DNA of 64,000 bases from Candidatus Hydrogenedentota bacterium (GCA_963668025.2 CAXXTH010000017.1:1056001-1120000); one strand, 5' to 3'. Shown: positions 16,655 through 57,102, numbered from the stretch's first letter. Numbers and translations are program-made. Notes: generated by a model from the letters alone, not told the origin.

Positions 16655-18097
16655 TCACTCCCAATCCATGCCGTATTTTTGAAGGCGGTAGCGGAGCGAA
16701 CGGGGGGTGAGGCCGAGCAATTGGGCGGCCTTTTTTTGGGAATAGCGGGCGCGTTCGAGCGCTTGCTTGATCAGGTTGATCTCGATATCAGCCACATGGG
16801 TTTCTAGATCGAGCCCTTCCATGGGGAGCTGGCCCGGGGGGCGAATCGCGGAAACCGCCGTGGGCGCGGCGTTGTCGCTTGCATATTGCTGGACATTTGC
16901 CGGCAGATCATTCACGTCGATGCATGCGCCGCGGCACAGTGCAACGGCCCTTTCCATGATATTCTCGAGTTCCCGGACATTTCCCGGCCATTTGAAACCG
17001 CAGAGGCGCTCTTCCGCTTCGGGGGTGATATCAAGGGGCTTGCGTCCCATTTTGGCCGCGTGGGCGGCGGCGAAATGGCGGGCAAGCAGACGTATGTCGT
17101 CTCCCCGGGTGCGCAGTGGGGGCACAGTGATAGGGATGACATTGAGGCGGTAGTAGAGATCCTCGCGGAACTTGCCTTCCTTGGCCATTTGTTCGAGGTT
17201 CCGGTTGGTGGCGGATATGATGCGGACATCCACGGGGATGGCTTTTGTGCCGCCTACAGGCGTCACAATGCTGATATCGAGGACGCGCAGGAGTTTGACC
17301 TGGAGCGGCAAGGGCATTTCGCCAATCTCGTCCAGGAAAAGCGTGCCGCCGTTGGCGACGACAAACAGCCCTTCCTTGCGCTCGACAGCGCCCGTGAAAG
17401 CGCCCTTTTCATGGCCGAACAGTTCGCTTTCGAGTAGGTTTTCCGGGAATGCGCCGCAATTGATGGCTACGAAGGATACGGATGCGCGCTGGCTGAGCTG
17501 GTGGATGCCCCGGGCGACCAGTTCTTTGCCGGTGCCGCTTTCGCCATGGATGGCGATGGTGCTCGATAAGGTGGCCACGCGGCGGATCATGGTGCGCACT
17601 TCTTCGATGACGGGGCTGTTGCCCACGATGTTATCGAGCTGGCCGCGCAGGGCCTGGTCTTTGCGCAAGGCGGTGTTTTCGCGTACGAGGTCGCGCTGTT
17701 CGATGGCGCGGCGGATGATGATGCGCATTTCATCGTTTTTGAAGGGCTTCATGATGTAATCGGCGGCCCCCCGCTTCATGGCCTCGATGGCCACCTCGAC
17801 GGAGCCGTGGGCCGTCATCATGATGGCGGGGGTATTGGAGGCGTGTTCGGCGATCCAATTCAGCAGCGCCATGCCCGCATCGCGCTGGGTGCCCATGCGA
17901 AGGTCCGTGACGACGCAGTCAAACGTGGAAGCTTCTAAGCGGGCTTGGGCCTGGGACACATTGGCGGCGGATTCGACTTCATACCCATCGTTCTGCAAAA
18001 CGATCTCGAGCAGCTCACGCATGCCGCTTTCATCATCGACCACGAGAATGCGCGCTTTTGCGGGCTTATTTACTCGTTCCACCCCATGTGCCGCCAT
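16655..18097 (-). CDS. pilR: Sigma-54-dependent response regulator, PilR-like
   Basis: REC domain (VVDDE, TDLRM), GESGTGKE, GAFTGA, WPGNVRELEN, Fis HTH; next to pilS/pilT. Confidence 0.85.
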   Translation of the reverse strand: MAAHGVERVNKPAKARILVVDDESGMRELLEIVLQNDGYEVESAANVSQAQARLEASTFDCVVTDLRMGTQRDAGMALLNWIAEHASNTPAIMMTAHGSVEVAIEAMKRGAADYIMKPFKNDEMRIIIRRAIEQRDLVRENTALRKDQALRGQLDNIVGNSPVIEEVRTMIRRVATLSSTIAIHGESGTGKELVARGIHQLSQRASVSFVAINCGAFPENLLESELFGHEKGAFTGAVERKEGLFVVANGGTLFLDEIGEMPLPLQVKLLRVLDISIVTPVGGTKAIPVDVRIISATNRNLEQMAKEGKFREDLYYRLNVIPITVPPLRTRGDDIRLLARHFAAAHAAKMGRKPLDITPEAEERLCGFKWPGNVRELENIMERAVALCRGACIDVNDLPANVQQYASDNAAPTAVSAIRPPGQLPMEGLDLETHVADIEINLIKQALERARYSQKKAAQLLGLTPRSLRYRLQKYGMDWE

Positions 18098-18103
18098 AAT
18101 CCG

Positions 18104-19738
18104 TTATTCTCCGAAGCGGGCCGCGGGCAGCCGCACGATGAGCGACGCTCCGTGTTCCCGGCGTGATGTGACATGAATAGTGCCATCATGAGCCGAGATA
18201 ATCCGCATGCACACGGCAAGGCCCATGCCGACCCCCGATTCTTTGGTAGTATAGAAAGGCTCGAAGATCCGCGCAACCTCATCCGGTGGAATGCCCGGGC
18301 CTTCATCCTCGAATACGACCGCCACCGATACCTGATCCCGCGAAGCGGAAATGGTGAGGGTTCCGTTTTCATTCATGGCTTCGACCGCGTTTTTGCCGAT
18401 ATTGATGAACACTTGCTTGAGCTGGGCGCGGTCGCCTGAGATAGGGCAATGCTCCGCGCCATGCTTGAGTTCCATATGGAGGCCGTTTCCGTTCACGCTG
18501 CGCTGGAGCAAGCCAGCCACTTCATCGAGGAGTTCCCATAAATCAAACGGATGGCGCTCCATGCGGGGCTCCCGGGCGAAATCGAGGAACTCGCTGACAA
18601 TATAGTTCAATTGGTCGCATTCGCGCATGGCGATGCTAGTGAGGCGGCGCGCCAAGACTGGTTCTTCCATCGAGCGTTCTAGTTCCTCGATAGCGCCGCG
18701 GATGGCGGCCACCGGATTTCGGATTTCATGGGCAAGGCCCGTGGACAATTCGCCCACTGCCGCGAGGCAGTCTTGGCGTTTGAGTTCATCGCGCATGATG
18801 GCCAGCTCGGTGAGGTCGCTGAAGGCGACGATGCTGCCGTTCAGGATGCCTTTCGAGTCATACATGCAACTGGTGCTTAAACCGAGCAAGCGGACATCAT
18901 CTTCGCCGATAATCGCCTCGAACTCATACCGGGTATAGTCGCGCCGGGTGCGAATCGAAGTAAGCACCGGGCATTCGCCGCTGGCGGCGGTGCGAAGCAC
19001 TTCTTGGACGGGCAGGCCGACCCCTCCGCCTTCTTCGAGCGCCAAGATGCGGCAGGCGGCTTTATTGAGAACCATCACGGCGCCTTCGGCGTTGGTGATG
19101 ATGAATCCGTTATTCATGTTGTCCAGGATTTCGCGCTGGAACTGGTTCAAGCGGCGCACCCGTTGGTTCCAATAGCCGCTAATCGCGGCGGTGAGGTAAT
19201 ACGCCAGGCCTTGTACGGCGAATTTGTAGGCCATGTCGGGAATGGCCTCGATTTGCCAAGCATCCCATCCCACCACATGCCCGCCGAGTGGCGATGAAGT
19301 CATGACTTGAATCGCCATGAACACGGTGGCCAGCGATGCGAAAACAAATCCTTGCGCGGGGCTTAACAGCAGGCTGGCTTCCAACACCACCACGACGAAC
19401 AGGAAAGTGGCGAAACTGTTCGAGCCGCCCGTGAAACTGATGGTGGCGGCCACGACGCAGAAGTCCACCAGCATTTGCGCCCAGGTGAGCAAGGTGGCCT
19501 TGACCAGCGGCCCGCGCACGAGCGACGCCAGATACCAGCAGCAACTGATGAATCCGAACAGATAGAAGCCGCTGAGGAGCCCGAGGCGGAAGCTGCTGGC
19601 GTCGTCCATGAGGATATAGGCGCCCAAGGCCATGAACAACAGCACGCCCACGCGGATGGCTCCGACATACCACAGCCAAACGGCGGGGCCTTCAATGGAA
19701 ACCCGGAAAAGGTCGGCGGAGTTGGGCCGTTTCTTCAC
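18104..19738 (-). CDS. pilS: Membrane sensor histidine kinase, PilS-like
   Basis: About 6 TM segments, PAS-like region, LAHEIRNP H-box, DEGPGI and GVGMGL ATPase boxes. Confidence 0.85.
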   Translation of the reverse strand: MKKRPNSADLFRVSIEGPAVWLWYVGAIRVGVLLFMALGAYILMDDASSFRLGLLSGFYLFGFISCCWYLASLVRGPLVKATLLTWAQMLVDFCVVAATISFTGGSNSFATFLFVVVVLEASLLLSPAQGFVFASLATVFMAIQVMTSSPLGGHVVGWDAWQIEAIPDMAYKFAVQGLAYYLTAAISGYWNQRVRRLNQFQREILDNMNNGFIITNAEGAVMVLNKAACRILALEEGGGVGLPVQEVLRTAASGECPVLTSIRTRRDYTRYEFEAIIGEDDVRLLGLSTSCMYDSKGILNGSIVAFSDLTELAIMRDELKRQDCLAAVGELSTGLAHEIRNPVAAIRGAIEELERSMEEPVLARRLTSIAMRECDQLNYIVSEFLDFAREPRMERHPFDLWELLDEVAGLLQRSVNGNGLHMELKHGAEHCPISGDRAQLKQVFINIGKNAVEAMNENGTLTISASRDQVSVAVVFEDEGPGIPPDEVARIFEPFYTTKESGVGMGLAVCMRIISAHDGTIHVTSRREHGASLIVRLPAARFGE

Positions 19739-20808
19739 GCGCCTCCTCGTTCGATGAGGCGCTGAAGGCCTTCTGGATCGTGGCTGCTCTTGAAGGCGGT
19801 TTCCATGGTGATGAGGTTGCGCCGGAGCAGGCGGAAGAGGGATTGGTTCATGGTGATCATGCCTTCGCCAGCGCCGATTTCGATCATGGATGGGATTTGT
19901 TCGAGTTTTTCTTCGCGCATGAGCGAGCGAATGGCCGTGTTGGGTATCATGATCTCGAGGGCGATGACCCGCCCGCGGCCGTCGGCCCGGGGGAGAAGTT
20001 GCTGCACGACCACGCCCTCGAGCACAAAGGACAACTGCGTGCGGATCTGGGCTTGCTGCGCGGCGGGAAACACGTCCACGATGCGGTTGATCGTTTGGAG
20101 AGCGTCGTTGGTGTGCAAGGTGGCGAACGCGAGATGGCCCGTTTCCGCCGTGGTGATGGCCGCCGAGATGGTCTCGGGATCGCGCATTTCACCGATGAGG
20201 ATCACGTCGGGGTCTTGGCGGAGCACATGGCGCAATGCGGCGGCGAACGACTTGGTGTCCGCATGCACTTCCCGCTGATTGATGACGGAATGGTTATGCC
20301 GGTGCAGGTATTCGATGGGATCCTCGATGGTGACGATATGTACGCTGCGTTCGCGGTTGATGCGGTCGATAATCGAGGCCAGGGTCGTGGATTTACCGCT
20401 GCCGGTGGGGCCGCAGACGAGGATCAATCCGATAGGGCGGTGGGCGAAATCGGCCACCACGCGCGGCAGGCCTAATTCATCGAATGAGCGAATCTCGAAT
20501 GGAATCGCGCGGAACGCCGCCGATATGGAACCCCGGTCGCGGTAGACATTTAAGCGGAAGCGGCTTAGCCCCGTGATGCCAAAGGAGAGGTCGCATTCCT
20601 TGTCGGCTTCGAACGAGGCCACTTGTTCTTCATTCATGACGGAGTACGCCAATTCTTGTGTATTTTCCGGGCGCAAGAGCGGATATCCTTCCAGGGCTTG
20701 AAGCGCGCCATGGACACGGACAATAGGGGGCACGCCGACGGAGATGTGCAGGTCGCTTGCACCCATTTCGATGGTCTTGGTGAGTAGTTCCTTGATGCTC
20801 AGTTCCAT
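19735..20808 (-). CDS. pilT: Type IV pilus retraction ATPase PilT
   Basis: ASDLH, GPTGSGKSTT, TIEDPIE, LRQDPDVILIGEMRD, AIRSLMRE (AIRNLIRE motif). Confidence 0.95.
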   Translation of the reverse strand: MELSIKELLTKTIEMGASDLHISVGVPPIVRVHGALQALEGYPLLRPENTQELAYSVMNEEQVASFEADKECDLSFGITGLSRFRLNVYRDRGSISAAFRAIPFEIRSFDELGLPRVVADFAHRPIGLILVCGPTGSGKSTTLASIIDRINRERSVHIVTIEDPIEYLHRHNHSVINQREVHADTKSFAAALRHVLRQDPDVILIGEMRDPETISAAITTAETGHLAFATLHTNDALQTINRIVDVFPAAQQAQIRTQLSFVLEGVVVQQLLPRADGRGRVIALEIMIPNTAIRSLMREEKLEQIPSMIEIGAGEGMITMNQSLFRLLRRNLITMETAFKSSHDPEGLQRLIERGGA

Positions 20809-20960
20809 ACCGCCTCCTCCAGTTCCCCCGCTGGTTAGTATTCTAGCAATCGACCAAGACTTTTCAGCTTTGTTCAGTCATCATAGACATCTCCATCATG
20901 TCTATCCGAAAATATCATTCGACTGGCCTTATCTTGTTTTCAACTGAAGATGTCGAATCG

Positions 20961-21251
20961 CTACTTTCGAGTTCCCGATACGGCTTGTGTATGCATGCAG
21001 GTTGTTTGTGTATTTTCGATTTCTTCGTAAATGGTCTCTGGGGCGATATCCGCGCCATTTGGCCAAGTGATAGCGCCACCTTCAATAGCAGTCATTTTGA
21101 AAAAAGCTATTTTCCGAAGCGGCTCAAATACGGCGCCTCTATTCACCCATTTAGAAAAATCGACTTCTCCCATTAATCCATTATCGAATTCGATTTCGTA
21201 GGTGTATTGTGATTTATAGCTAATCCTGACAATATCGTTGAGATTCCACAT
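20961..21251 (-). CDS. DUF2442 family protein, putative antitoxin
   Basis: IEFDNG...GAVFEPL...ITWPNGADIAPETIY; low GC; paired with DUF4160 remnant. Confidence 0.8.
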   Translation of the reverse strand: MWNLNDIVRISYKSQYTYEIEFDNGLMGEVDFSKWVNRGAVFEPLRKIAFFKMTAIEGGAITWPNGADIAPETIYEEIENTQTTCMHTQAVSGTRK

Positions 21252-21257
21252 CAATCT

Positions 21258-21731
21258 TTACTCCAAAGGCGCTATCTGATTTATTAGCGTGCATTGGCTG
21301 GCTCGTTCCCAGTTCTCCTGTACTTCAATTGCATGCAGATCGATCCATTCTCGAACGAGTTTAGTTGCCGTTTTCGATTGTAGATCACCGGCTAAAATAT
21401 TACCTCGAAAGTCAAACAATGCTTTTACTCCATACTAATATCTGGCAAAACGTTATTTTCTTGAGAAGATTCTCTTGGGAAACCAATATGTATTAACTGG
21501 TTAGAACTTACGATTTATATATTATCATGGCAGATGTATCCTTTGAACGGTGGGGCAAGCCCCACCCTACCTTTAAAATTTTAGTGTAATTAGTGTATTT
21601 CGTGGTTTAAATATCCGAATCTTTGGTTGCGGCTGCGCCGCGCTATGATATTCTATGTGGAGATTTGGGGGATTATGATCTTCATAAAACAATCGGACGA
21701 CAATCCCGAAAAACATAGAAATCACAGGTAT
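21258..21731 (-). pseudogene. DUF4160 family gene, interrupted
   Basis: 5' half (I)PVISMFFGIVVRLFYEDHNPPNLHIEYH at 21731-21645 and 3' half GVKALFDFRGNILAG...VREWIDLH...ENWERA...IAPLE* at 21431-21258, split by ~213 bp; start codon reads ATA. Confidence 0.85.
21432..21644. repeat. Composite insertion of REP/MITE-like elements
   Basis: On the minus strand it contains AGCGCGGCGCAGCCGCAACC and the GTAG-GGTGGGG-CTTG-CCCCACC hairpin; lies between the DUF4160 halves. Confidence 0.65.
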
Positions 21732-21765
21732 TACTGAATTTTCGCTCCGTGTCACCAATCTTTCA

Positions 21766-23505
21766 TTAATCCGCCGCAGACACGCGCAGCACTTCTTCGA
21801 TGGTGGTCATGCCATGAGCGGCCTTGGACAGGGCGTTCTGGCGCAAGGTGCTCATGCCGCATTCGATGGCGCGCCGTTTGATGTCGCTCGAGGTCGCGCG
21901 TTTCATGACCAATTCCTGGAGTTGCGGATAATTGGGCATGGCTTCAATGACCGCGAGGCGGCCGCTGTATCCGGTGTCTTTGCATTTGGCGCAGCCGCGC
22001 CCGCGCACGAATTGCGGGGGCGGAGCGCCTTCAGGATGGCGGTATTGGATGCGCTGGAGCACTTCGTCCGGCACTTTGATGGTCTGTTTACAGTTTGAAC
22101 AGACCTTGCGCATCAGGCGCTGCGCCGCCGCGAGGCCCACGGAAGATTGCACGAGGAAAGGCTCGACGCCCATATCGGTGAGGCGGGTGAATACGCTTGC
22201 GGCGTCATTGGTGTGCAGGGTGCTCAGCACCAGGTGGCCGGTAAGGGCGGCCTTGACCGCGATATCGGCGGTTTCTTCGTCGCGGATCTCACCCACCATC
22301 ACGATGTCGGGGTCTTGGCGCAGAATACTGCGCAATGAGGCCGCGAAGGAGAGGCCGATTTCGGAATGCACCTGCACTTGGTTGATGCCGAACAAGTCAT
22401 ATTCGACGGGGTCTTCGACCGTCACGATATTGCAGTCGGGTTTGTTGAGCTTGTGGAGTGCGCTGTAGAGCGTGGTGGTTTTGCCGCTTCCCGTGGGGCC
22501 TGTCATCAAGATCATCCCAAAAGGGAGCTTCAAGGCGTCATTAAACGCTTCCATAGGCTGTCTTTCGAAACCTAGGGCGTCCAGGTCAAGGGTCAGATTG
22601 CCCTTGTCTAGAATACGCGCCACGATCTTTTCGCCATGGGAGCAGGGCAAAAACGAAATACGGAAGTCGACTTCGCGGCCCTTATATTTAATGCGGAACC
22701 GGCCGTCTTGAGGAACGCGGTGTTCCGCGATATCGAGGTCGCTGAGGATTTTGAACCGGGAAGTCAAGGCGGCTTGGACGCTCTTCGGGGGGTTTTTGGT
22801 TTCCTCGAGCATGCCGTCGATACGGTAGCGGACGCGTAGTGTGCGCTCGAAGGGCTCGATGTGAATATCGCTCGCGCCGGAATCGAGGGCACTGGCGATA
22901 ATAAGGTTTACGAGCCGGATGACCGGGCCTTCTTCCGCCTCGAGTTTGAGTGTGCCGATATCGCCAATGTCATCTTTTTCCTCGATGACATCCAATGTGT
23001 CGCTGACGCCGTCATCCGCTAAAAGCTCGTTATAGAGTTCCGAGTTTTGTTTGCCGCTGTAATGGCGGTTGATGGCGGCGCTCAACTCGGACGCCACGGC
23101 GACAACAGGCTCGATCTCATAGCTGGTGAGCATGCGGAGATCGTCGAGCGCCATGATGTTGAGCGGGTCCGACATGGCAAGGGTGAGCACGTCGCCGGTC
23201 ACGGAGACGGGAAGCATTTGGTATTGGCGGGCCAGGGATTCGGGCACTTCATTGAGCACTTCCTGGGCGATTTTATAATTGGCCACCCGGATATGGGGTA
23301 TGCCGAGCTGGTCGCTGAGCGTCACGACCAAGTCTTCCTCGCTGAGGTAGTTTTTGCTGAGTAAAATGCTGGCGAGGCTCTGGCCGGTGGCGCGTTGTAT
23401 GCTGACGCATTCGCGCAGTTGTTCGTCGGTGATAAGCCCCTGTTCGAGAAGGACATCACCCAGCCTGCGCTTGGCTGTTTTTGTCAATTTTCGGTCTCCT
23501 GCCAT
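21766..23505 (-). CDS. pilB: Type IV pilus assembly ATPase PilB with N-terminal MshEN
   Basis: RLGDVLLEQGLI MshEN, ASDIHIEP, PQDGR, GPTGSGKTTT, LRQDPD, CxxC...CxxC; start at ATG 23505 after a G-rich RBS. Confidence 0.93.
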   Translation of the reverse strand: MAGDRKLTKTAKRRLGDVLLEQGLITDEQLRECVSIQRATGQSLASILLSKNYLSEEDLVVTLSDQLGIPHIRVANYKIAQEVLNEVPESLARQYQMLPVSVTGDVLTLAMSDPLNIMALDDLRMLTSYEIEPVVAVASELSAAINRHYSGKQNSELYNELLADDGVSDTLDVIEEKDDIGDIGTLKLEAEEGPVIRLVNLIIASALDSGASDIHIEPFERTLRVRYRIDGMLEETKNPPKSVQAALTSRFKILSDLDIAEHRVPQDGRFRIKYKGREVDFRISFLPCSHGEKIVARILDKGNLTLDLDALGFERQPMEAFNDALKLPFGMILMTGPTGSGKTTTLYSALHKLNKPDCNIVTVEDPVEYDLFGINQVQVHSEIGLSFAASLRSILRQDPDIVMVGEIRDEETADIAVKAALTGHLVLSTLHTNDAASVFTRLTDMGVEPFLVQSSVGLAAAQRLMRKVCSNCKQTIKVPDEVLQRIQYRHPEGAPPPQFVRGRGCAKCKDTGYSGRLAVIEAMPNYPQLQELVMKRATSSDIKRRAIECGMSTLRQNALSKAAHGMTTIEEVLRVSAAD

Positions 23506-23825
23506 ATGGCGTCCCCCCAGGTGCGCCCAATATCCGAACGCACTGGGCATAGCCCAGGCGGCTTACTTGGGCAACGAAGCTATTATCTCATATTCCAGCG
23601 TAAAACGTGTAGTGGCGGATTACTCCCCAAATCACCCGATACGGTTTTTTGTATCATACTTGATAGCGTTACAACTCAATCTAGGCAATCACTTTTAACG
23701 CAAAGGCGCGGAGAACGCGGAGGTCCGCAAAGTAGAAAAATCATTTTCAAACAGTTTTTCGCACCTTCGAGAGTGAACTCCGTAAGCGGCAATGGAGAAG
23801 AGCGGATTCTCGGCGGCGCTTCGGA

Positions 23826-26144
23826 TTATTCCGTAACGTCTTCGCCGATATGTCCGAGTATTTCGCCCACGAGGTCCGCCGTGACGGTTTGCCCCATGAG
23901 ATCGGCATACGCGATGATTTTGCGGAGTGCGCCGGTCATTTTGCGCACGTCGCTCGAGACGCGGGTGGCGATGAGCACCAGCAGTTCTTCGGGCACATTC
24001 GCGCTGGCCTGTTTGACTTGGTGGCGCAAGATGCTGAGGCGGGTTTCCCATTCGGGAGGGACGAGGCAGGTGACGATACCGCTGCCGAAACGGGAGACGA
24101 GTCGTTTTTCGAGCTGGCCGAGCCGGTCGGGGGCTTTATCGCCGGCGATAATGATTTGGCGGCCTTCTTCGTGGAGGGTGTTGAAGATGTGGAAGAATTC
24201 TTCTTGCGCTTCGATGCGGCCGCCCAGGAATTGGATGTCATCGAAAATGAGGACATCCCATTGGCAATAGTTTTCGCGGAATTCATCCAGGGTGCGTTCT
24301 TGAAGGGCGTCCATGAGCTTGCGTGCGAAGCGGCTTGATGAAACAAACCCGACGCTGGCATCCGGCTCGGATTGGAGGATGGCGTTGCCGATCGCGTTGA
24401 TCAAGTGGGTTTTTCCGAGGCCTACGTCGCCATGAACAAAGAACGGATTGTAGCTTTCTCCGGGATTTGCGGCCACGGCGGTACTGAGGCGGAGGGCGAA
24501 TGCATTGGCTTTTCCGCAGAAAAACGTATCGAAGGTATAACCGGCGAGGGGGGATTCCGACTCGAGGGCCATTTGGATGCGGTCGTCAATATGAAGCTTG
24601 ACGCCGGGGCCTTCCATGGCTTCGAGGATATCTTGTTCAGTTTTTCCGAGCAGGGCGGCGGCTTGGCGGCGTTTGCGCTGGGCTAATCCGCCATGTTGGA
24701 GCGAGCGGCGGGTGAGGGTGCTGACGGAAGCGATTTCAACTTGGTCGGCGGCGCGCTGGGCTTCTTTTTCCGCGCGGGAGGCGGCCTCTTGTGCGGCTTG
24801 GGTGGCGGCGAGAAGCTGGGCGGTTTGGTTTTCCTGGCTGGCCATGGCGGTCTGAATGGCGGCTTGCGCGGCCTGTGCGGCCTGCATGGCGGCTTCCGTG
24901 AGCTGGGCCATGCGCGCTTCCTGCGCCGCTTGGCTGAGCTGAATGGTTTCGAGTGCTTCGATGGCGGCGCCGCCCAACGGTTCGCGGTTCAATTCTGTTT
25001 CAGGCTGGCCGGCTGTTTCGGCTTTGGAGAGAAGCGACTGAGCGCGCAGCATCTGGGCCATGTCGCCCAGGGCTTCCCGCATTGCGTCGCGCAGGCTGCC
25101 ATGCATCACCTGCGCAAGCTCCTTTGGCGACGGCCCGGCGGGCGGGGCGCTTTTCACCACGGTGCTCATGGCTTCTTTCATGGCGTCTTGCAGGGTGGCG
25201 CGCATCTCGCTCACGACGGCGCGCATGGTGGCTTCCGGCGCGTCGGACGCCCGGGGCGTGATGCTGGATAGGGAGTCGCGCATGGCTTCCCGGACGCTTT
25301 CGCGCATGATGGCCGCGATATCGGCCGCGCTGGGCGTAGTGGAAGCAGGCGCTCGTTCGGCTGCACGGCGCACTTGCTCGGCAATGGCGAGGGCGGCGTC
25401 TTGCATGGCCCCGTGGACGCTTGCGCCCACGGCGCGGGCTAATTCCTGCGTGTCAATCGCAGGGCCTTGCGTAAAGTAAGCGTGGCGTGGCGGCGCTGTT
25501 TCCAGCGCTGTTTCGATTGCTTCGTTTTCCTCTTCCTCCTGCGGAAGAATTGGCTCGGGCGGTGGGGCGGGCGCTTCCTCTTGGGGAGGGAGATGCCGCA
25601 AGGCGGCCAATCCGAAACTGGCCATGCTGGTTTCTTCCGCGGATTCTTGGGAGCGCTTGAATAGGCGGCTGGCCACCTGAATGAAGTGGTTGTATTCGCA
25701 TAAAATGGGCTTTATTTTCAGATCGGGGCATGCCGTACGCACTAATTCGAGCGCCCGATCATCCAGGGGATCCACCATGGCGACGGTGAGGATCTTCCCG
25801 AGTCTATCAATGGGCAGCACGCCATGCTCGAAGCAGGTTTCGGCGGGCATGAGGGAGAGAATGTCTTCGGCAATGTGGTAATCGAGCAGGTTAATGTGCG
25901 GGATGCGGCATTGTTTGACGAGAAAGGTGAGCAGCACGTCTTGCTGGATATGCCCCAGTTCGACCAATGTTTGGCCTAGAAACGCGCCGGTTTCTTTTTG
26001 GCGTTCGAGGGCCTCCTCGAGCTGCTTGGGGGTGATGATCCCTTCCTCGAGCAGAATATCGCCTAACCGGCGGCGATTGGGGGTTAGGCTGTCCACACCC
26101 GGCGCGGAGTCGTCCGCGTCGTTTCTTTTCATTCGTCTAAACAT
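23826..26144 (-). CDS. MshEN/T2SSE_N + helical-repeat linker + DnaA-type AAA+ domain fusion, no domain IV (start 26144 or 26195)
   Basis: N-terminal RLGDILLEEGIITPKQLEEALERQ; C-terminal YTFDTF..GKAN, YNPFFVHGDVGLGKTHL, DDIQFL, QEEFFHIFNTL, RLVSRF, PPEWETR, SDVRKMTGAL. Confidence 0.88.
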   Translation of the reverse strand: MFRRMKRNDADDSAPGVDSLTPNRRRLGDILLEEGIITPKQLEEALERQKETGAFLGQTLVELGHIQQDVLLTFLVKQCRIPHINLLDYHIAEDILSLMPAETCFEHGVLPIDRLGKILTVAMVDPLDDRALELVRTACPDLKIKPILCEYNHFIQVASRLFKRSQESAEETSMASFGLAALRHLPPQEEAPAPPPEPILPQEEEENEAIETALETAPPRHAYFTQGPAIDTQELARAVGASVHGAMQDAALAIAEQVRRAAERAPASTTPSAADIAAIMRESVREAMRDSLSSITPRASDAPEATMRAVVSEMRATLQDAMKEAMSTVVKSAPPAGPSPKELAQVMHGSLRDAMREALGDMAQMLRAQSLLSKAETAGQPETELNREPLGGAAIEALETIQLSQAAQEARMAQLTEAAMQAAQAAQAAIQTAMASQENQTAQLLAATQAAQEAASRAEKEAQRAADQVEIASVSTLTRRSLQHGGLAQRKRRQAAALLGKTEQDILEAMEGPGVKLHIDDRIQMALESESPLAGYTFDTFFCGKANAFALRLSTAVAANPGESYNPFFVHGDVGLGKTHLINAIGNAILQSEPDASVGFVSSSRFARKLMDALQERTLDEFRENYCQWDVLIFDDIQFLGGRIEAQEEFFHIFNTLHEEGRQIIIAGDKAPDRLGQLEKRLVSRFGSGIVTCLVPPEWETRLSILRHQVKQASANVPEELLVLIATRVSSDVRKMTGALRKIIAYADLMGQTVTADLVGEILGHIGEDVTE

Positions 26145-26345
26145 GCCGTCTCGCGGCTCCCTGCTGCACCTATTGCTCTGGATGAATGGTATCATTCAGG
26201 AACATGGCGGTCAAGCGATTTTCTTGCGTAACCCTTTAATCATCAATTAGTTGTCAAATGAAGCTAGCTTGAACGAGCTTGGATGTGTGATGTATGGCCG
26301 TGCATACCTGCCGCATCTGTTTGTTGTATGAAGGAATAAAATCCC

Positions 26346-26480: not shown

Positions 26481-29400
26481 TCAGGAAAAGAGCCTTTCGC
26501 GCATCAGGCAGGCGAAGCCCGCCATCAGTACGGGAAGAATGGCGGCGCGCATGGGCGCTTGGGGGACACTGTCCGCATTATATGGGTCCGTGCCGAGGGC
26601 TATTTCCACCGCGTCTGGAACGCCATCGCCATCCGCGTCGTGTGTGGGATTATAGGTGATGGTTATATCGGCGCTTCCTATTTCAGCGCCGCTGGCGTCC
26701 AGGGCGGTGATATGCAGCATATTCTGGCCAAGAATCAAGGGGAGCTCGATGCGCCATTCGGTTTCGTTTGGGGGGTGGGCGTAACGGACGCCATTCACGT
26801 CTAGTTCCGCCATGCCGGTTTCGCATGCGCCCTCCAAGGTAAAAGGGGAGATGCCAGTGGTGAAATCCTGCCCATAATTCGTGGAGATGAGCAGGGGTGG
26901 CCCGGGGCCTTCGCCGCCGGTGAGTTTGAAAATCCGCTGTTCGTTTTGCTCGAAGTCTGCACTCCAACTGGTGATGGCCGTTCCGATGAGGGCATTTGCG
27001 GTTACGTCAACGACATCCACGGGCGAGGCTCCGTCTTCGAGAATGGAAATGTCGTCGAAGGCGATATTTGTGGCGGCATACGTTCCATACACCTTCAACA
27101 ACACCCGCAGTTCGTTTGTGTAGTCGGCGGCGGTGTTCGAGAAGGTGAAATCGCCGGAAAAGGAAGTCCAGGATTTATCTTGCAGCGGCGAAGCCGTTCC
27201 CGTGGCGAGCACCGCCGTGTAGGACGCCGTACTCCATTCATGGGGTTGAAACACCAGATAGATGTAATCCGATGCGCCTGCGGCGCTGGCGTCCAGGCCA
27301 TCTATGTATACGCTGCCGGAAACGTGATAGGTTTTGCCTTGTTCCGCCTGGAGGGTGATGCCAAGCGGTTCCGAATACTGGCCGGGCGTGCTCGTGAACG
27401 GCCCTGTTTGCAGGGCGTTCGCGCCCGTATGGGCGAGCGCGCTGGTGGCGGTGCAGACAGGCAACGCGCCATACGAGGGGCTTATCCAGCAGCCGAATCC
27501 GCTTGTGGGCAGCGCGCCGGTGAATTTCTCGAAGCCGCCGTTGGGCGCTTTTTCGCCTGGAATCTGGAAGCAGCGCCTGCCGCCGCGCTCCCGCGCATAC
27601 ACATATAAATAGCGGCCATTGTAGTTAGCGGCGTCCGCCGTGCTGAGCGTGCCGGCATCCACCAGCAAGTTGATTCCGGCATACCGCGCCAGGCTCCGCA
27701 CGAGCGGAGCAGACAGGCTGGGAGCGCCGCAGAAGACGCTGTTCCATTCATTATTTTCTTGTAGCAGCAACGCGGGCAGCCCGTTGCCGCTATAGGTTCC
27801 CAGTGTGGTGAAGCCGCCTTTGGTGGAATCGCCATAAAACGAGGGGGCGATTGTGGAGGCGGACCCGAAGGCATGCCCAGCGAGGCCCTGTGCAATAGGT
27901 GATACGCCCGCCGCCATGGTGATAGTGGTATTGGCGGGCGCCGCGTTTTTCAGGAGTGGGAAGCCTGTGATGTCCTGCATATCCGCCAGCGAAAGGCCGG
28001 TTTCATTCACGTAGCCTGGCGCATACAGCCACACGAGGGTATGGCCGTTGTTTTTAGCGCCTTCCACGAGCGCCCGTTCATTCGCGGCCATGCGGAACGT
28101 ATTGACGAAAACATACAGTTTCACGCTGGATGGGATATTCGGAAGGTCTTGGATATGGTAATACCCCACGGGAACGCCGGATTCCTGGAAAACGCTCCGC
28201 TGCGCATAGGCGTTGGGCTGGGTGAGTGCGTTGCAGCCGGATTTGAGCCAGTAATAGGTTTCTTCGTCATAGATAAGGGCAACGCTTGGTTTGTAGGCCA
28301 TCGCGGCGTCAATGGAATCCTTGTAGGTTTCAGAAACCACGGCGTTGTTGCTCCAGATCGAAGGGGAGTTGAACCGCCCATCGGCCCATAGGTCCATCCA
28401 CCATAGTGCTTGATTGTGAGCGATGACATTGCCGTAATCGCGGCGCAGGCATTGCATGGTGTCCCATTCCGTCGAATACCAGGGATTAAAATTGTCCGGA
28501 TTTCCGCTGGGGTTCACCACATAGGTGTTCGAGTCGTTCTCCTGCAAGTACATTTTGCCCGAGAGCGCCACGGAATCCACCATGGACATCATGTTGCATG
28601 GCCCGCCTATTTGCCGGTCAAAATACGATACGGGGCTGCATAGGATATCGATGTCCGGCGATTCGAGGAGCCGCCGCAGGGCCAAGTGGCCCGAATGGGC
28701 GATGCCCCGGGTATAGCCGTTATTGATCAATTCGGTTTGATAGCCGTAGAAGGCGGCCACCAGGGATTTATGGCTGGTGAGCTGTTTGACGAAGGCCGCC
28801 AGCTCCGCGATGCGGTCCGCCACGAGGTTGTTATGGTATTCACAATAGTCTGGCACGGCGCGCTGTTTGGCGGGATCGCGAAAAAAGCCGTCATCGCCTT
28901 TTTGCCATTCGGCGGCGGAGGGGATGGAGATGGCGTTGAACGCGGCGTAGCTGGTTCTCCATGCGGTGTTCAGGTTCTCGATGGAGCCGTACCGTTTTTC
29001 GAGCCAGGCCACATACCGCAAGCGGTTCACTTCGCTATAGTCCCAAAAGCTAGATGCGATCTCGGGGTAGAACCACTCACCTCCGGATAGATAGGTGAGA
29101 TGATAGCCGATGATGCGGTCTTTGTAGGGCGTGTTGTGGAAAAAGCGCACCAGGCTCTCGATTTGAGCTTTCGCGTCGGTAATGAATATATCCGAGGCGA
29201 GTGAAGGCCCGGCGGCATAGGAGGTTTGCCCGCCGTTTTCGTCCACGAAGAGCTGATCGGCGTGGTTGGTTTTCCATACCGCGGAGGGGAAGATGGAAAT
29301 GCGCGGCAGAATCCATGCGTTGGGATTCGCCTGGAGCAGGAGGTCCGCCATGCCCGTGCTCATGCCCTCCCAGGGCAGATTGATGGGGATTTGCACCAGG

Positions 29401-30146
29401 TTGACGCCCGCCGACGCCGCCAGGGCGGCTTCTTCGTAGACAGCCGGATTGCCCGAATTGCCGAAGAAAAAATCGGGCGTTTGCACATTGCCGTTGATGT
29501 ACAAGCGTGGCGAGCCGTTGCGATCCCGTTTGATTTCCGCATGGGGAATGTCTGCAGAAAGCTCCCCTGGTGTGTCCATGATCTCCATGGATACGCTATC
29601 CAGGCAGGCCGCGCCCGAGACAATGCCCGTATTGAGCACCATCTGGATGTCCGCGCGGGTTGCGCCTTGCGGCAATGCACTCACGATTTCGACCGGCATA
29701 TACTCGTGGGTTCCCGCATAATCACCATTGGCGTAATGGTAGGCGAGTACTTGGCTCGAAGCGTTCCAGATGGCCACCACAAAGCGGAGGCCTTGATTGG
29801 GATTTGCCAATTGGAGGTTTTCCGTCTTGATGCAGAGCCGCACTTTCAAGAGCGAGCCTGCGGGCTGTGTGGCCACGCTTACGCCATTATGGAGAATCAA
29901 CAGGCTCTCCGTCCCGCCGAAGGCGGTTAGCGCCGCGGCATACGAGCCTTCATATATGTGGTCCGCATTGTTGGTTGTATTCCAACTCAGGGCTTGGCTG
30001 TCTGGATTGTATACGGTCCAACCGCTGGTGTTGCCTTGCTCGAAACCGCCATTGGGGAGGTTGAGCATGGCGCTCGAAGCTTCTGGAGCGCCAATCAGCG
30101 TTATGAGGCATAGAATTGCGATGGGGATGTGTGCCAGAACAAGCAT
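26481..30146 (-). CDS. Secreted multidomain glycoside hydrolase (GH42/beta-galactosidase-like) with CBM-like modules and C-terminal membrane anchor
   Basis: Signal peptide after AAGGAG RBS; two NGGFE jelly-roll modules; GGEWFY, YGSIENLNTAWRTSY, SPVSY core; C-terminal DxDGDG, TM segment and basic tail. Confidence 0.7.
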   Translation of the reverse strand: MLVLAHIPIAILCLITLIGAPEASSAMLNLPNGGFEQGNTSGWTVYNPDSQALSWNTTNNADHIYEGSYAAALTAFGGTESLLILHNGVSVATQPAGSLLKVRLCIKTENLQLANPNQGLRFVVAIWNASSQVLAYHYANGDYAGTHEYMPVEIVSALPQGATRADIQMVLNTGIVSGAACLDSVSMEIMDTPGELSADIPHAEIKRDRNGSPRLYINGNVQTPDFFFGNSGNPAVYEEAALAASAGVNLVQIPINLPWEGMSTGMADLLLQANPNAWILPRISIFPSAVWKTNHADQLFVDENGGQTSYAAGPSLASDIFITDAKAQIESLVRFFHNTPYKDRIIGYHLTYLSGGEWFYPEIASSFWDYSEVNRLRYVAWLEKRYGSIENLNTAWRTSYAAFNAISIPSAAEWQKGDDGFFRDPAKQRAVPDYCEYHNNLVADRIAELAAFVKQLTSHKSLVAAFYGYQTELINNGYTRGIAHSGHLALRRLLESPDIDILCSPVSYFDRQIGGPCNMMSMVDSVALSGKMYLQENDSNTYVVNPSGNPDNFNPWYSTEWDTMQCLRRDYGNVIAHNQALWWMDLWADGRFNSPSIWSNNAVVSETYKDSIDAAMAYKPSVALIYDEETYYWLKSGCNALTQPNAYAQRSVFQESGVPVGYYHIQDLPNIPSSVKLYVFVNTFRMAANERALVEGAKNNGHTLVWLYAPGYVNETGLSLADMQDITGFPLLKNAAPANTTITMAAGVSPIAQGLAGHAFGSASTIAPSFYGDSTKGGFTTLGTYSGNGLPALLLQENNEWNSVFCGAPSLSAPLVRSLARYAGINLLVDAGTLSTADAANYNGRYLYVYARERGGRRCFQIPGEKAPNGGFEKFTGALPTSGFGCWISPSYGALPVCTATSALAHTGANALQTGPFTSTPGQYSEPLGITLQAEQGKTYHVSGSVYIDGLDASAAGASDYIYLVFQPHEWSTASYTAVLATGTASPLQDKSWTSFSGDFTFSNTAADYTNELRVLLKVYGTYAATNIAFDDISILEDGASPVDVVDVTANALIGTAITSWSADFEQNEQRIFKLTGGEGPGPPLLISTNYGQDFTTGISPFTLEGACETGMAELDVNGVRYAHPPNETEWRIELPLILGQNMLHITALDASGAEIGSADITITYNPTHDADGDGVPDAVEIALGTDPYNADSVPQAPMRAAILPVLMAGFACLMRERLFS

Positions 30147-30334
30147 GAGAACAAGCTCCTTTTCCTGAGGCGGTATGTACAGATTCATGCTACTGATTTT
30201 GGCGGTATTGCGCCTTCACAATCTCAAAAGCGAATAGGACAATCTAGCGTATCTGTGTTGCGGAAGATATTGGAATGCGTGATTTGTTTACTGGAATAGA
30301 GGGGCTAGGCCCGGCGGGAAAAACGGAAGGCTGC

Positions 30335-31217: not shown

Positions 31218-32531
31218 TCATGCGGCATCTTTCCTAGCTCTGTCGGCCCAGAAGTCTTCGAAGTCTCTGTTCAAGAAGGCGCATCGTAGCGTAATGATCT
31301 TGTTTGCACCGTTGACCGTCCATCTCATTCCGGACTGCTTGAGCCGTTTTCCTACAACATTTTTGCAGCCGGCCTCTATGACGCCGGAGCCGACGAACAG
31401 TTTTTGTTCCCGGAATTCGGCATAGCGCATCATGTGGGCGCGGCTGCCCAGATACAGAAAATGTTCCCAGGCCGCCTTGCCGTCATCGTCGTGGCTGGGC
31501 ATGTGTGGCCGCAGTAGCTCCAGGGCCTGCGCGGCCTCTCCCTGCCGCACGAGTTCGCTGAGGCTTTGGCGCATCCGCATCCCCAGCTCAGTGGTCTTCC
31601 CAAAGAGCAGCGCGCACAACAGCGCCAGGTGTTCCAGTGCGTGATACAGGTCGAGGATGTGAACGGCCCCGGGGAAGTAGTCGGCGGCGATGTTCGCTAT
31701 CCATTGCGCGCCGTCGGAAAGGACCACCACCTTTTGCGCGCGTTCCAGTCCACGGCGCTGGGCTTCGGCGAAGATGCGGCCTGCAAAGGCTTCGGCGTTT
31801 TCCACGGCGCCGGAAAAGGTGGTGCTGCCGGGGTCGCGCACCGGCTCCCCCTTCTCGTCCGTGCTGGTTTGTGTGAAGACGCATCCGATTTTGGCCTCAC
31901 GGGTTTTGGCGGATCCGTCTTGCGCCTTTCCCTTGCGCCCGTCCGTTTCGGACTTGACGACGGGAACCCCCGTGCCGTCCATTTCGATGTACAGGACGGG
32001 AATCTCATCGCCGGTGCTGGGCTGCGCGGGGTTTGACGGATGCCCGCGCCGCTGCTTTTCCCACGCGGCCACGTCCGCTCCCGTCTGCTCGCTGGACCGC
32101 TCGCAGTCCTTGGCGCTCACGCTGATGCCCGCCAGTTCTTTTAGATCCCCGGCGGCGTCCGCGAAGCTTTCCCGCGCGCCAAGGCGCGCCGTCATTCGCC
32201 TGACGCCGGGCGAACGCGAAGTGCCCGCGACATCCAGCAGTTCGTCCGCTGGATAGGCGGTGGCCCCGCATGGGCAGCGGTACATCGCGCGCTCCTGCGT
32301 GACGTTCCCCAGAATGGTCGTGATGCGCCTGGCCCGCATGCCCGCGCGGCGCATGGGATGGCCGCACAGCGGGCACGCATGCTCCTGGCCCTGGACAATG
32401 GCGTTTGCCTTGTCGAACAGGACGGCCAGCGTCTTTCCCGCGCCTTCCAGGGCGGCGGTGCGGATGAGTTTCTCCGTTGCTTCAAAGTCCACGCCGCGGT
32501 CCCGGCGGACTAGCGCCAGCGCCCGCGACAT
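31218..32531 (-). CDS. ISKra4/UPF0236-type DDE transposase
   Basis: CPxCG and CPCG motifs, YIEMDGTGVP, LSDGAQWI, ILDLYHALEHL, GSGVIEAGCK..RLKQSGMRW. Confidence 0.9.
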   Translation of the reverse strand: MSRALALVRRDRGVDFEATEKLIRTAALEGAGKTLAVLFDKANAIVQGQEHACPLCGHPMRRAGMRARRITTILGNVTQERAMYRCPCGATAYPADELLDVAGTSRSPGVRRMTARLGARESFADAAGDLKELAGISVSAKDCERSSEQTGADVAAWEKQRRGHPSNPAQPSTGDEIPVLYIEMDGTGVPVVKSETDGRKGKAQDGSAKTREAKIGCVFTQTSTDEKGEPVRDPGSTTFSGAVENAEAFAGRIFAEAQRRGLERAQKVVVLSDGAQWIANIAADYFPGAVHILDLYHALEHLALLCALLFGKTTELGMRMRQSLSELVRQGEAAQALELLRPHMPSHDDDGKAAWEHFLYLGSRAHMMRYAEFREQKLFVGSGVIEAGCKNVVGKRLKQSGMRWTVNGANKIITLRCAFLNRDFEDFWADRARKDAA

Positions 32532-55382: not shown

Positions 55383-55680
55383 CTGAAATGGGCATATTTC
55401 CGCCAGAGCCGGCCTTGGCGCTAAGCGTACATCTTACACCAGAAGCCGGGGGCGAGATCGAGGAGAACAACCATCTAGGGCATTGGCTTCAAATGTGCTG
55501 GCTCTTTGCGTGGCGTTTTGCTTGGCCTTATTCATCATCGGACGGATTGGGGGGATCGGACGGATCGGTTTTACATGGGCTGGACGGCCATGCTTTATAT
55601 TCGATTTCTTTTTTCCTTGTTCGTATAATGATGCGGCAATAACTGATGTGGGATACGGCGTCTCCGATTGGAAACAGCAT

Positions 55681-57102
55681 ATGGCGAATCTTTACCATCC
55701 CGAAAAGGCCACTAAGCGCATAGGCGCGCTGCTCATCGAGAGTGATCTGATCACCGAAAAGCAGTTGCAGGAGGCCCTGGCTCTTCAGCAGAAGCAAGGG
55801 GGGAAAATTGTCGAGACGCTGATTTCGCTGGGATATCTTAACACCGCCGAATTCACCCGTTTTTTAGCGAGGCAAGGGCTTCCCGCAGTCGATTTGTCGC
55901 AATATGAGATTCCGCGTGATCTCCTGGAATTGGTGCCCAAATCCCTCGCCAATAAACACAAGATTGTTCCCATTGATAAGCTGGGCTCACATTTAACTAT
56001 TGCCATGGAATGCCCGCTCGACTCGCATGCTATTGAGGAAATCCGTGAGGCCACCGGGCTCAAGGTGCGGCCTGTTTTGTGTTCCGCGAAGGATGTCGAG
56101 GCGGTTCTTGCCCGGTATTATAGAGAGCCAGTGGATGAGGAAGCCGCGCATTTAGAGAAACTGCATGCGGTCGCTGGGCTTAAGACATTCCCGCTCCCCC
56201 CCGCGGCGCCTGTCTCGATGCCGGCATTGGCCTCCACAGCCGAACTGCCGGAAGCAGGCGGGCCGGTGTCGATGCTCAGTGCGCCATTGAAGCTAAAAGG
56301 GATTTCGACGCTTATCCGCAACCTCGAGTCGCTTCCGACATTGCCCGACACGGTCATGAAGGTGCGGCAGGCGTTGAACTCGCCTTATAAAGGCGCGCGG
56401 GATGTGTCGCAGATCATCCTTTCGGATCCGCCCATCGCCGCGAAACTGTTGAGCATCGTGAATTCACCGGCATATGGCCTCCCCCAGAAAGTGAAAGATA
56501 TCGGCCTTGCCGTTTCGCTTCTCGGGATTGATGAGACCTGCTCGATAGTCTTTTCCGTGGCGGTGATTCAGGCCATGGGCGGGAGCAAACAAGAGGCCTA
56601 TCGCCGTTTTTGGAACTCCGCGCTGCGTTGCGCCCGCATTTCCAATATCATCGCTTTGGCGCGCGGCGAAAAGCTGAGCGGAGCCGTGTTCTCCGCAGGG
56701 CTATTGCATGATATTGGCAAGCTTGCCCTGATCCAAGTAGTTCCGCAGCGGTATGAAAGCATACCTTCAGAGCTGTTTGGAATGGACCTGCTGGCTGCTG
56801 AAGAGGAAATGATTGGCCTCACCCACGCCGAGGCGGGCTATATTTTAGCGGATTACTGGAATTTGCCCGAGGAGATTGTGGAGGCCATTCGGCATCATCA
56901 CCACCCTGAGCGCGCGGAAAAAGCGCCCGGACTCGTGGCCACGGTGACTGTTGCTGATGTGCTCACCCAGGCGGATCGCGTCCTGGTGCGTGAATGCGGG
57001 GGCGCTTTTACTGTGCTCAAATCCAGCCCAGATATCGTTGTCGAGATCATGCGCGCGGGACTCGGCCTGTTCGACGAATCCATCCGTATTCCGTCAATGT
57101 GA
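55681..57102 (+). CDS. MshEN/T2SSE_N + HDOD domain protein
   Basis: RIGALLIESDLITEKQLQEALALQ; LPTLP, DPPIAAKLL..NSPAY, GLLHDIGKL, HAEAG...WNLP, HHHP; start placed at ATG 55681. Confidence 0.85.
   Translation: MANLYHPEKATKRIGALLIESDLITEKQLQEALALQQKQGGKIVETLISLGYLNTAEFTRFLARQGLPAVDLSQYEIPRDLLELVPKSLANKHKIVPIDKLGSHLTIAMECPLDSHAIEEIREATGLKVRPVLCSAKDVEAVLARYYREPVDEEAAHLEKLHAVAGLKTFPLPPAAPVSMPALASTAELPEAGGPVSMLSAPLKLKGISTLIRNLESLPTLPDTVMKVRQALNSPYKGARDVSQIILSDPPIAAKLLSIVNSPAYGLPQKVKDIGLAVSLLGIDETCSIVFSVAVIQAMGGSKQEAYRRFWNSALRCARISNIIALARGEKLSGAVFSAGLLHDIGKLALIQVVPQRYESIPSELFGMDLLAAEEEMIGLTHAEAGYILADYWNLPEEIVEAIRHHHHPERAEKAPGLVATVTVADVLTQADRVLVRECGGAFTVLKSSPDIVVEIMRAGLGLFDESIRIPSM

Follow-up and report, generated by a model that had tools for sequence, protein, structure and literature searches.

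In the genome of a Candidatus Hydrogenedentota bacterium (GCA_963668025.2), we closely examined a 64,000-nt stretch of contig CAXXTH010000017.1 (positions 1056001 to 1120000; here termed the window) and a gene within it that joins an N-terminal MshEN domain to a DnaA-type AAA+ ATPase immediately upstream of pilB. Most likely, the encoded protein (here termed the fusion) tunes the type IV pilus and not the start of DNA replication. We consider the chances about even that it is an accessory of the PilB/PilT motor that responds to cyclic di-GMP (c-di-GMP) and carries a repurposed DnaA-type ATP switch. This reading is based on a conserved five-gene block that is headed by the fusion and on the dependence of the fusion on pilB, on a PilB-derived N-terminal domain (N-domain) that was modelled to pair with PilB, and on an ATPase that retains the residues for assembly and has lost those specific to the initiator. 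Since the fusion depends on pilB and is modelled in contact with PilB, the pilus motor is its more probable target.

An initial annotation, made from the sequence alone, had described one continuous open frame, and translation of the minus strand at 23826..26195 yielded exactly this, with all of the quoted strings present (RLGDILLEEGIITPKQLEEALERQ-KETGA-FLGQTLVELGHI, GDVGLGKT, IFDDIQFL, QEEFF, RLVSRF, and SDVRK). Since methionine 18 is almost invariant as the start in family alignments and the product of the gene caller (P0004) comprises 772 amino acids, the gene more likely spans 23826-26144, with M18 at 26144 as the likely true start of a 772-amino-acid protein. The features of the frame are as follows, with residue numbers in parentheses and confidence given as predicted local distance difference test (pLDDT) values:

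23826..26195, minus strand: whole MshEN-DnaA-III fusion frame, 789 aa, with ATG start and stop codon at 23826-23828
25911..26069, minus strand: tandem 24-residue c-di-GMP motifs with a 5-residue spacer (43-95; NF053729, 65.9 bits)
25650..25907, minus strand: second MshEN subdomain of the T2SSE_N type (97-182; PF05157; pLDDT ~96)
24696..25451, minus strand: central Ala/Gln/Glu-rich helical region (249-500; long helices in the AlphaFold2 model, pLDDT ~80)
23829..24578, minus strand: DnaA domain III, AAA+ core plus lid (540-789; PF00308, 196 bits), with no domain IV after it
24408..24431, minus strand: Walker A, GDVGLGKT (589-596; K595 corresponds to Escherichia coli K178; Lys in 84/85 family members)
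24225..24248, minus strand: Walker B, IFDDIQFL (650-657; D652/D653 correspond to D235/D236; 84/85)
24087..24104, minus strand: box VII, RLVSRF (698-703; R698 corresponds to R281, R702 to the arginine finger R285)
23940..23954, minus strand: sensor II box, SDVRK (748-752; R751 corresponds to R334; 85/85)

Pfam assigned MshEN to residues 97-182 (55.5 bits; cut-off, 23.1) and Bac_DnaA to residues 553-709 (196 bits; cut-off, 23), and the NCBIfam c-di-GMP_motif model NF053729 covered residues 43-95 with 65.9 bits (cut-off, 38). Neither Bac_DnaA_C (PF08299) nor DnaA_N was among the five Pfam families that matched the fusion at an E value of ≤0.01, and the T2SSE ATPase domain PF00437 gave no match in the Pfam search. 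The fusion scored below the cut-offs of TIGR00362 for DnaA (302.7 versus 343.9 bits), TIGR03420 for Hda (91.7 versus 194.8 bits), and TIGR02538 for PilB (54.2 versus 675.65 bits), and none of the PADLOC anti-phage defence families matched it at an E value of ≤0.001. As the initial annotation had it, the frame ends at the border of domains III and IV, its last residue aligning at about position 372 of E. coli DnaA and domain IV being absent; nor was a DnaA domain I (no DnaA_N match) or an Hda-type clamp motif (0/85 family members with three patterns) found. In an AlphaFold2 model built on 85 family sequences (mean pLDDT, 78.7), the N-domain (residues 40-180) and the AAA+ domain (residues 540-785) reached pLDDT values of ~96 and ~97, respectively.

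The genes that follow the fusion in the window were assigned via Pfam:

21766..23550, minus strand: pilB, T2SSE ATPase with its own MshEN N-domain (T2SSE, 462 bits; MshEN, 81.9 bits)
19735..20808, minus strand: pilT, retraction-type T2SSE ATPase (present in 18/21 loci)
18104..19738, minus strand: pilS, histidine kinase with a PilS-type six-transmembrane domain (18/21 loci)
16655..18097, minus strand: pilR, sigma-54-dependent response regulator (18/21 loci)

The order and orientation described earlier, with the fusion heading pilB-pilT-pilS-pilR, were thus confirmed, but a 275-nt gap precedes pilB and a 957-nt insert separates pilB from pilT. Likewise, the designation as a type IV pilus locus holds for pilB, pilT, pilS, and pilR, but no pilin, pilC, or pilMNOPQ gene is present in the window's fusion-pilB-pilT-pilS-pilR cluster. 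For comparison, 20 loci were fetched that represent 14 of the phylum's 15 families, giving 21 loci with the window. In all 21 (20/20 fetched loci plus the window), the fusion lies immediately upstream of pilB in the same orientation, and a genome of the remaining family (G033) likewise shows the fusion-pilB adjacency. According to the coordinates, 14 to 201 nt separate the stop codon of the fusion from the first conserved PilB residue in 20 loci, compared to 345 nt in the window. The genes pilT-pilS-pilR follow pilB in 17 of the 20 fetched loci (18/21 with the window). When every frame of ≥100 aa in the 21 loci was clustered, no other conserved neighbor emerged on either side. Outside the phylum, a locus of a second phylum (L085) shows the identical five-gene order fusion-pilB-pilT-pilS-pilR, and in two further genomes of that phylum a PilB-like N-domain begins 37 to 49 nt after the fusion. 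A weak promoter/terminator scan found no minus-strand terminator-like site between the fusion and pilB and one promoter-like site at 26214-26186.

Furthermore, 12 genomes of the phylum in which the N-domain gave no clear match were checked for pilB. Six of them also lack an orthologous PilB, the best match showing 42 to 52% identity versus 59 to 81% for orthologues. Of the other six, two carry the fusion beside pilB, two have a contig end at pilB, and two have pilB-pilT-pilS without the fusion. A fusion without pilB was never seen among the loci and genomes examined, and since pilB can occur without the fusion, this is the pattern of an accessory factor; related genomes are not independent in these counts.

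The c-di-GMP motif pair, which the initial annotation had read from two short strings, appears intact in the profile search and in the alignment columns. Motif I (residues 43-66) follows the strict published pattern (PMC5013675). Motif II (residues 72-95) retains the LG, the hydrophobic pair, the Gly, both Leu residues, and the final Gln of that pattern and deviates from it by Phe72, in place of R/K/L, at position 1 and His at position 11. Among 85 family members, the conserved columns of motif I are L44 (82), G45 (78), and L48 (85), with R43 in only 62, and Q66 is found in 51, with 19 Lys and 10 Arg at that position. For motif II the counts are 77 for G74, 79 for L77, and 73 for Q95, and Phe72 is a hallmark of the family (81/85). 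The NF053729 profile matched 50 of 52 family members at E values of ≤5e-10. Conservation of the N-domain peaks in the second subdomain, above the motif pair. In structure searches, whose rows covered residues 37-184 and 519-789 of the fusion, the N-domain resembled Vibrio cholerae MshE with bound c-di-GMP (5htl; VIA Z score of 16.8 over 139 residues), and a PDB sequence search returned MshE 1-145 with an E value of 1.9e-22.

In the GSPII-B domain of Thermus PilF, Lys and Leu replace the two leading arginines, and this domain binds c-di-GMP 83-fold tighter than MshEN; a hydrophobic residue at the motif head has been proposed as a predictor of very tight binding (PMC11731258). Because Phe lies outside the extended consensus of that paper, we infer binding of c-di-GMP by the fusion rather than read it off the motif. 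The host genome contains 11 matches to GGDEF, which indicates that c-di-GMP signalling is present.

To assess a possible contact with the motor, a complex of PilB (alignment of 19 sequences) and residues 38-185 of the fusion (alignment of 82 sequences) was modelled. The interaction prediction score from aligned errors (ipSAE) was 0.65, 0.70, and 0.69, versus 0.00 in three controls; the model runs shared at least 88% of contacts, and the pLDDT of the partner was at least 81. In the model, PilB residues 72-152 meet fusion residues 86-165, so that the contact surface of the fusion consists of its second subdomain plus residues 86-94 of the last helix of motif II. Equivalent residues face each other (PilB n versus fusion n+14), i.e., the second MshEN subdomains would pair in a pseudo-symmetric manner. 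The model supports binding of the fusion's N-domain to that of PilB.

MshEN domains also occur on other proteins. In the window itself, 55483-57102 (plus strand) encodes a 539-aa protein with MshEN followed by HDOD, whose N-domain is 38% identical to that of the fusion and is its closest relative in the host genome. Further phylum genomes encode MshEN plus cNMP_binding proteins (L080:1887-3128, L081:1950-3389, L082:1568-2977, and L084:1791-3212) and an MshEN plus PAS plus GGDEF protein (L083:2000-3577); their N-domains are ~50% identical to that of the DnaA-III fusion, and both forms are absent from the host genome. As the predicted domain layouts show, several signalling proteins of the host genome carry MshEN as a module.

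Such modules would also fit a general receptor or buffer of c-di-GMP without a specific tie to PilB, in which the ATPase drives self-assembly for another purpose and the adjacency to pilB is synteny inherited from a duplication of the 5' end of pilB. The fusions of MshEN to cNMP_binding and PAS-GGDEF, the HDOD protein in the window, and the genus that has lost the fusion yet keeps pilB-pilT-pilS speak for this view. We nevertheless regard it as quite improbable: the adjacency has been kept across two phyla with nothing else around it conserved, the other MshEN fusions are not located beside pilB in the five loci examined, and the PilB contact model passes its controls.

The C-terminal module is a complete DnaA domain III with Walker A and B, arginine-finger box, and sensor II, as proposed in the initial annotation (PF00308, 196 bits). 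It superimposes on domain III of Thermotoga maritima DnaA (2z4r) with a VIA Z score of 29.4 and a root mean square deviation (rmsd) of 1.5 over 239 residues, compared to a Z score of 19.6 and an rmsd of 5.0 for Shewanella Hda (3bos). A PDB sequence search likewise gave E values of 3.1e-68 for DnaA (8bv3) and 8.3e-9 for Hda (3sc3). Hda carries an N-terminal beta-clamp-binding motif of the QL[SP]LPL type. An assignment of the fusion to the Hda family, as a label of "Hda-like" would imply, fails because the score is below the cut-off (91.7 versus 194.8 bits) and the clamp motif is found in 0/85 family members. Both its sequence and its modelled structure place the ATPase far nearer to DnaA than to Hda.

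We then aligned the ATPase of 85 family members with E. coli Hda and with two sets of DnaAs, 13 from the phylum and 16 others (E. coli numbering is used). Retained in the family are K178 (84/85), D235/D236 (84), D269 (77), R281 (72), R285 (85), and R334 (85). At the E204 position, 65 members have Ser and 15 have Gly (S621 in the window's protein), at R227 71 have Cys (C644 in the window's protein), and at L290 83 have Ile or Val. In a second alignment, E204 and R227 were both lost in 21/21 and 9/9 pilB-linked fusions, while E204 was retained in 29 of 30 DnaAs (Asp in one) and R227 in all 30; three of three other MshEN-DnaA-III proteins retain both residues. An E204Q exchange reduces the ATPase activity of DnaA, and the equivalent E183Q DnaA is dominant-negative in Bacillus subtilis (PMC5319796). 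R227 is the AID-1 arginine required for unwinding-competent complexes, and R281 stabilizes DnaA oligomers (PMC5716108). As the residues for assembly and ATP are retained and E204 and R227 are lost, the AAA+ module should bind ATP and assemble via the arginine finger but should hydrolyse slowly and leave DNA unopened. The loss of E204 and R227 fits a repurposed DnaA-type ATPase, the second option of the initial annotation, and equally a subunit that poisons DnaA oligomers.

In the initiator, V211 and R245 bind the single-stranded unwinding element (PMC5716108). The V211 position is variable in the family, with Ala (21) and Lys (12) as the commonest of 85, and the R245 position is indeed Glu, as had been noted by eye (69/85). 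This Glu carries little weight, since the DnaAs of the phylum have Ala (13/13), including the host genome's own canonical DnaA, and other DnaAs have Arg in only 6 of 16. These positions bear on the idea that the fusion is a DNA-handling partner of the pilus, i.e., a c-di-GMP-controlled filament that binds single-stranded DNA for uptake during competence. DnaA domain III binds such DNA in the initiator (PMC5716108), and the MshEN-type domains of Thermus PilF affect both pili and DNA uptake (PMC11731258). As the residues tied to single-stranded DNA are not retained and no competence gene is conserved beside the fusion in the 21 loci, we judge this role to be very unlikely.

The main idea of the initial annotation was a c-di-GMP-gated modulator of DnaA that links the state of the surface or the pilus to replication initiation. 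Its domain III module would join DnaA oligomers at oriC or touch DnaA-ATP via the arginine finger and, without domain IV, E204, and the AID-1 arginine, would cap or poison the complex or else stimulate hydrolysis as Hda does. In Caulobacter, pili and c-di-GMP feed into the start of the cell cycle. The ATPase is ~45% identical to canonical DnaAs and fits T. maritima domain III closely, its arginine finger, sensor II, and mostly R281 are in place, and the loss of R227 and E204 suits a non-unwinding, slowly hydrolysing "poison" protomer, as does the dominant-negative E183Q DnaA (PMC5319796). We nonetheless consider this role unlikely. No link of the gene to dnaA, dnaN, or oriC emerged from our analysis, and the separate canonical dnaA, the existence of which the initial annotation had asked about, was found on another contig of the host genome (473 aa). 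Moreover, the fusion lacks the Hda score and clamp motif and was never seen without pilB, which a pure replication regulator would not need. In the tree, it groups most closely with non-canonical DnaA-III proteins that carry TPR, further MshEN, or unassigned regions (support of 96 in the Shimodaira-Hasegawa-like approximate likelihood ratio test [SH-aLRT]), which points to a general-purpose module.

Both targets could also be connected in a bridge, in which the AAA+ module pairs with the cell's DnaA and the N-domain with PilB, so that c-di-GMP and the state of the pilus motor gate replication initiation. We rate this combination as rather doubtful, marginally more so than the general receptor described above. 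If true, it would be a link from surface sensing to the cell cycle in one polypeptide, conserved across two phyla. Taken more broadly, MshEN domains would serve as plug-in handles that dock DnaA-type ATPase, cNMP-binding, PAS-GGDEF, and HDOD modules onto the N-domain of PilB.

Several points weigh against an accessory of the pilus motor. Both chains of the complex model come from a family with multi-chain solved structures, and the pass may thus be a remembered homodimer mode; the calibration, in which 58 of 80 solved complexes but also 2 of 110 mismatched pairs attained the ipSAE mark, holds only roughly, as our own alignments were used. The literal c-di-GMP patterns fit the family poorly, with the strict motif I in 9/85 members, the relaxed one in 36/85, and Arg43 in 62/85. 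The ATPase is still ~45% identical to canonical DnaAs and retains both DnaA-DnaA contact faces. In two loci (L046 and L047) pilT-pilS-pilR do not follow pilB, and in a third (L051) the contig ends. Two genomes of one genus (G037 and G038) keep pilB-pilT-pilS with no fusion within ~5 kb upstream or genome-wide, indicating that the fusion is dispensable for the motor there, and the six genomes without both genes are 71 to 93% complete, so that some absences may be assembly gaps. Finally, the host genome has six PilC/GspF-type genes, and its pilin, pilC, and pilMNOPQ genes are located elsewhere; which machine is served is therefore something that we infer.

As an accessory of PilB/PilT, the fusion might work as follows. 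The four-helix bundle would bind c-di-GMP, with Phe72 at the head of motif II being the kind of replacement that gives very tight binding in PilF GSPII-B (PMC11731258). The second MshEN subdomain would pair with its equivalent in PilB or take up the site at the pilus base where PilB docks. The AAA+ module would act as a slow, ATP-dependent assembly switch, gathering several N-domains in a manner akin to hexameric PilB. Which motor engages the machine, PilB for extension or PilT for retraction, would in this way depend on c-di-GMP and on the ATP state.

The region between the two domains had been called a long linker. This was correct as far as low complexity is concerned, which applies to part of it, but residues 249-500 are partly a predicted helical region (pLDDT ~80), flanked in the AlphaFold2 model by disordered stretches (residues 181-246 and 502-536). 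Weak repeats of ~33 residues were detected in it (score of 55 versus a shuffled maximum of 46). The spacer varies strongly in length, with family proteins of 553 to 1202 aa and short forms of 454 to 541 aa.

To trace the spread of the fusion, 5.8 billion proteins were searched, which yielded 204 matches. Both PF05157 and PF00308 are present in all of the best 120 of these 204 homologues (553 to 1202 aa), and among the same 120, named homologues derive mostly from Candidatus Hydrogenedentes/-ota genomes. Homologues are called "DnaA/Hda family protein," "ATP-binding protein," "hypothetical protein," or "chromosomal replication initiator protein DnaA" in the databases. Two ESM Atlas clusters (72 and 56 members) contain both domains in 100% of members and are mostly from Hydrogenedentota. 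With the full-length fusion as the query, all 135 genomes of Hydrogenedentota (GTDB phylum) gave a match, and in 107 of them the best E value was <1e-67, stronger than any listed match in a DnaA-sized frame. For the remaining 28 genomes, this search does not tell fusion and DnaA apart; some clearly possess the fusion, with the N-domain in frames of 642 to 865 aa (G082, G094-G096, G117, and G035). A scan of species genomes was dominated by matches to canonical DnaA: 79 of the 80 loci kept comprised the ATPase part only, and L085 was the one full-length relative outside the phylum. In the second phylum, to which L085 belongs, a short-spacer form of 442 to 510 aa was found in 10 of 11 genomes.

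This distribution bears on whether the gene could be an artefact, i.e., an assembly chimera or two genes joined by read-through. Public contigs over the region are short: Logan contigs from two DNA runs gave only short identical pieces, none of which spans the gene. Nevertheless, independent genomes from both phyla share this architecture in a single stop-free frame, as do hundreds of proteins from metagenomes, so that chimerism or read-through is ruled out, and we assign it a negligible chance.

In a 70-row tree, the fusion ATPases formed one clade (SH-aLRT, 98) separate from the DnaAs of the phylum (100). In an 81-row tree, the fusions of both phyla formed one clade (99), while the canonical DnaAs of both phyla grouped together (95). 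In this latter tree, the fusion clade is nested in a clade (96) of other non-canonical DnaA-III proteins, in which the ATPase either is linked to a TPR array or a different MshEN domain or occupies the N terminus. All supports are SH-aLRT values from quick trees, and because the 81-row tree is rooted on E. coli Hda, which has a very long branch, the order of events is limited to the statement that the fusion, as judged from these trees, predates the split of the two phyla.

Further DnaA-type ATPases were observed along the way. Three proteins of the host genome (6.15 Mb, 24 contigs) match Bac_DnaA: the canonical DnaA, the fusion, and a weaker DnaA-like ATPase with a long coiled coil. The latter is a 717-aa open frame in the C17:485276 region (L003:1489 to beyond 3435, plus strand) with an N-terminal Bac_DnaA match (49 bits) followed by more than 450 Glu/Ala/Gln-rich residues of predicted coiled coil. 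A large group of tandem double DnaA domain III proteins of ~640 aa (P0126, P0128, P0150, P0170, and others) bear mostly Gemmatimonadota names, and a search with the short outlier P0237 returned mainly such Gemmatimonadota proteins, with one further MshEN-bearing match (P0271) among the 120 listed. In other proteins, DnaA domain III is fused to long TPR arrays (P0219, P0236, and P0253), DUF835 (P0230, P0235, and P0247), or zinc ribbons (P0220 and P0227).

DnaA domain III is normally regarded as an engine specific to the initiator. With DnaA, the fusion shares the AAA+ core and lid, Walker A and B, sensor I, the box VII arginines, sensor II, and ~45% identity. It differs in the absence of domains I, II, and IV, a TIGR00362 score below the cut-off, the loss of E204 and R227 throughout its clade, and single-stranded DNA-binding positions that are not retained; furthermore, its clade is separate from host DnaA, it has MshEN at its N terminus, and its gene belongs to a pilus operon. 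Hda and HdaA, domain-III-only paralogues that inactivate DnaA-ATP, are alike in having only a DnaA-type domain III with an arginine finger. In contrast to them, the fusion scores below the TIGR03420 cut-off, has no clamp motif, fits their structure more poorly (Z score of 19.6, rmsd of 5.0), is about three times larger, and has an intact Walker A lysine, which is Arg in E. coli Hda.

Accessories that bind c-di-GMP, such as FimX-PilZ-PilB and similar systems, have been proposed to act via the N-terminal region of PilB. The fusion has no GGDEF/EAL or PilZ and consists of unrelated domains; instead, it carries a copy of PilB's N-domain plus an oligomerizing ATPase, its binding to PilB being a modelled one. 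The tandem 24-residue motifs and the T2SSE_N subdomain are shared with the MshEN (GSPII) domains of MshE, PilB, and PilF, and the hydrophobic residue heading motif II with PilF GSPII-B in particular (PMC11731258). In place of the T2SSE (PilT-class) secretion ATPase of these proteins, a DnaA-type AAA+ module follows MshEN in the fusion, and Phe at the motif II head is the family's own hallmark (81/85).

No publication on the MshEN-DnaA-III architecture was found in our literature searches, although the supplementary architecture tables of PMC5013675 may list it; the initial annotation's impression of an uncharacterized architecture thus appears justified. In this protein, a complete DnaA domain III has been freed of DNA-binding domains, joined to a likely second-messenger sensor, and long kept at the pilus motor genes. 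If it regulates PilB/PilT, it would represent a new type of pilus regulator and a clear reuse of the DnaA ATP switch outside replication. The tandem, TPR-fused, and DUF835-fused relatives support such reuse, and going by these sequences, DnaA's ATPase has been redeployed far more widely than its name suggests. If the fusion also touches DnaA, it would offer a directly testable route from surface and c-di-GMP signalling to replication control. Under either reading, the database names "chromosomal replication initiator protein DnaA" and "DnaA/Hda family protein" are misleading.

The surroundings of the gene in the window yielded further observations. The 957-nt insert between pilB and pilT (20809-21765) is of low GC content (~40%) and contains a DUF2442 gene (20961-21254, minus strand) and broken-looking DUF4160 remnants (21258-21419); a possible further DUF4160 remnant at 21573-21758 was seen by eye and had no Pfam match. 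In the 17 other loci with pilT, this gene directly follows pilB. In the gap between the fusion and pilB, a 37-nt stretch (23704-23740) also occurs, with one mismatch, inside unrelated public contigs; it may be a small dispersed repeat, which would possibly explain the longer gap. Upstream of the fusion, 26481-30188 (minus strand) encodes a 1235-aa probable secreted glycoside-hydrolase-like protein with weak GH42/GH14 and CBM_4_9 matches, a TSP3 repeat, and, by eye, hydrophobic ends; this gene is not conserved beside the fusion in other genomes. Farther upstream, a 437-aa frame (31218-32531, minus strand) has a weak match to UPF0236, a transposase-like family, and may be a mobile element.

A different association of DnaA with secretion-type ATPases was noticed in the second phylum. 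In one of its genomes (G135), a 352-aa DnaA with domains III and IV and without domains I or II (L179:5173-6231, minus strand) immediately follows two T2SSE ATPase genes that belong to a T2SS-like cluster (T2SSJ, K, PilM/N-L, and M). This type of pairing, ~4 kb apart, occurs in at least six genomes of that phylum.

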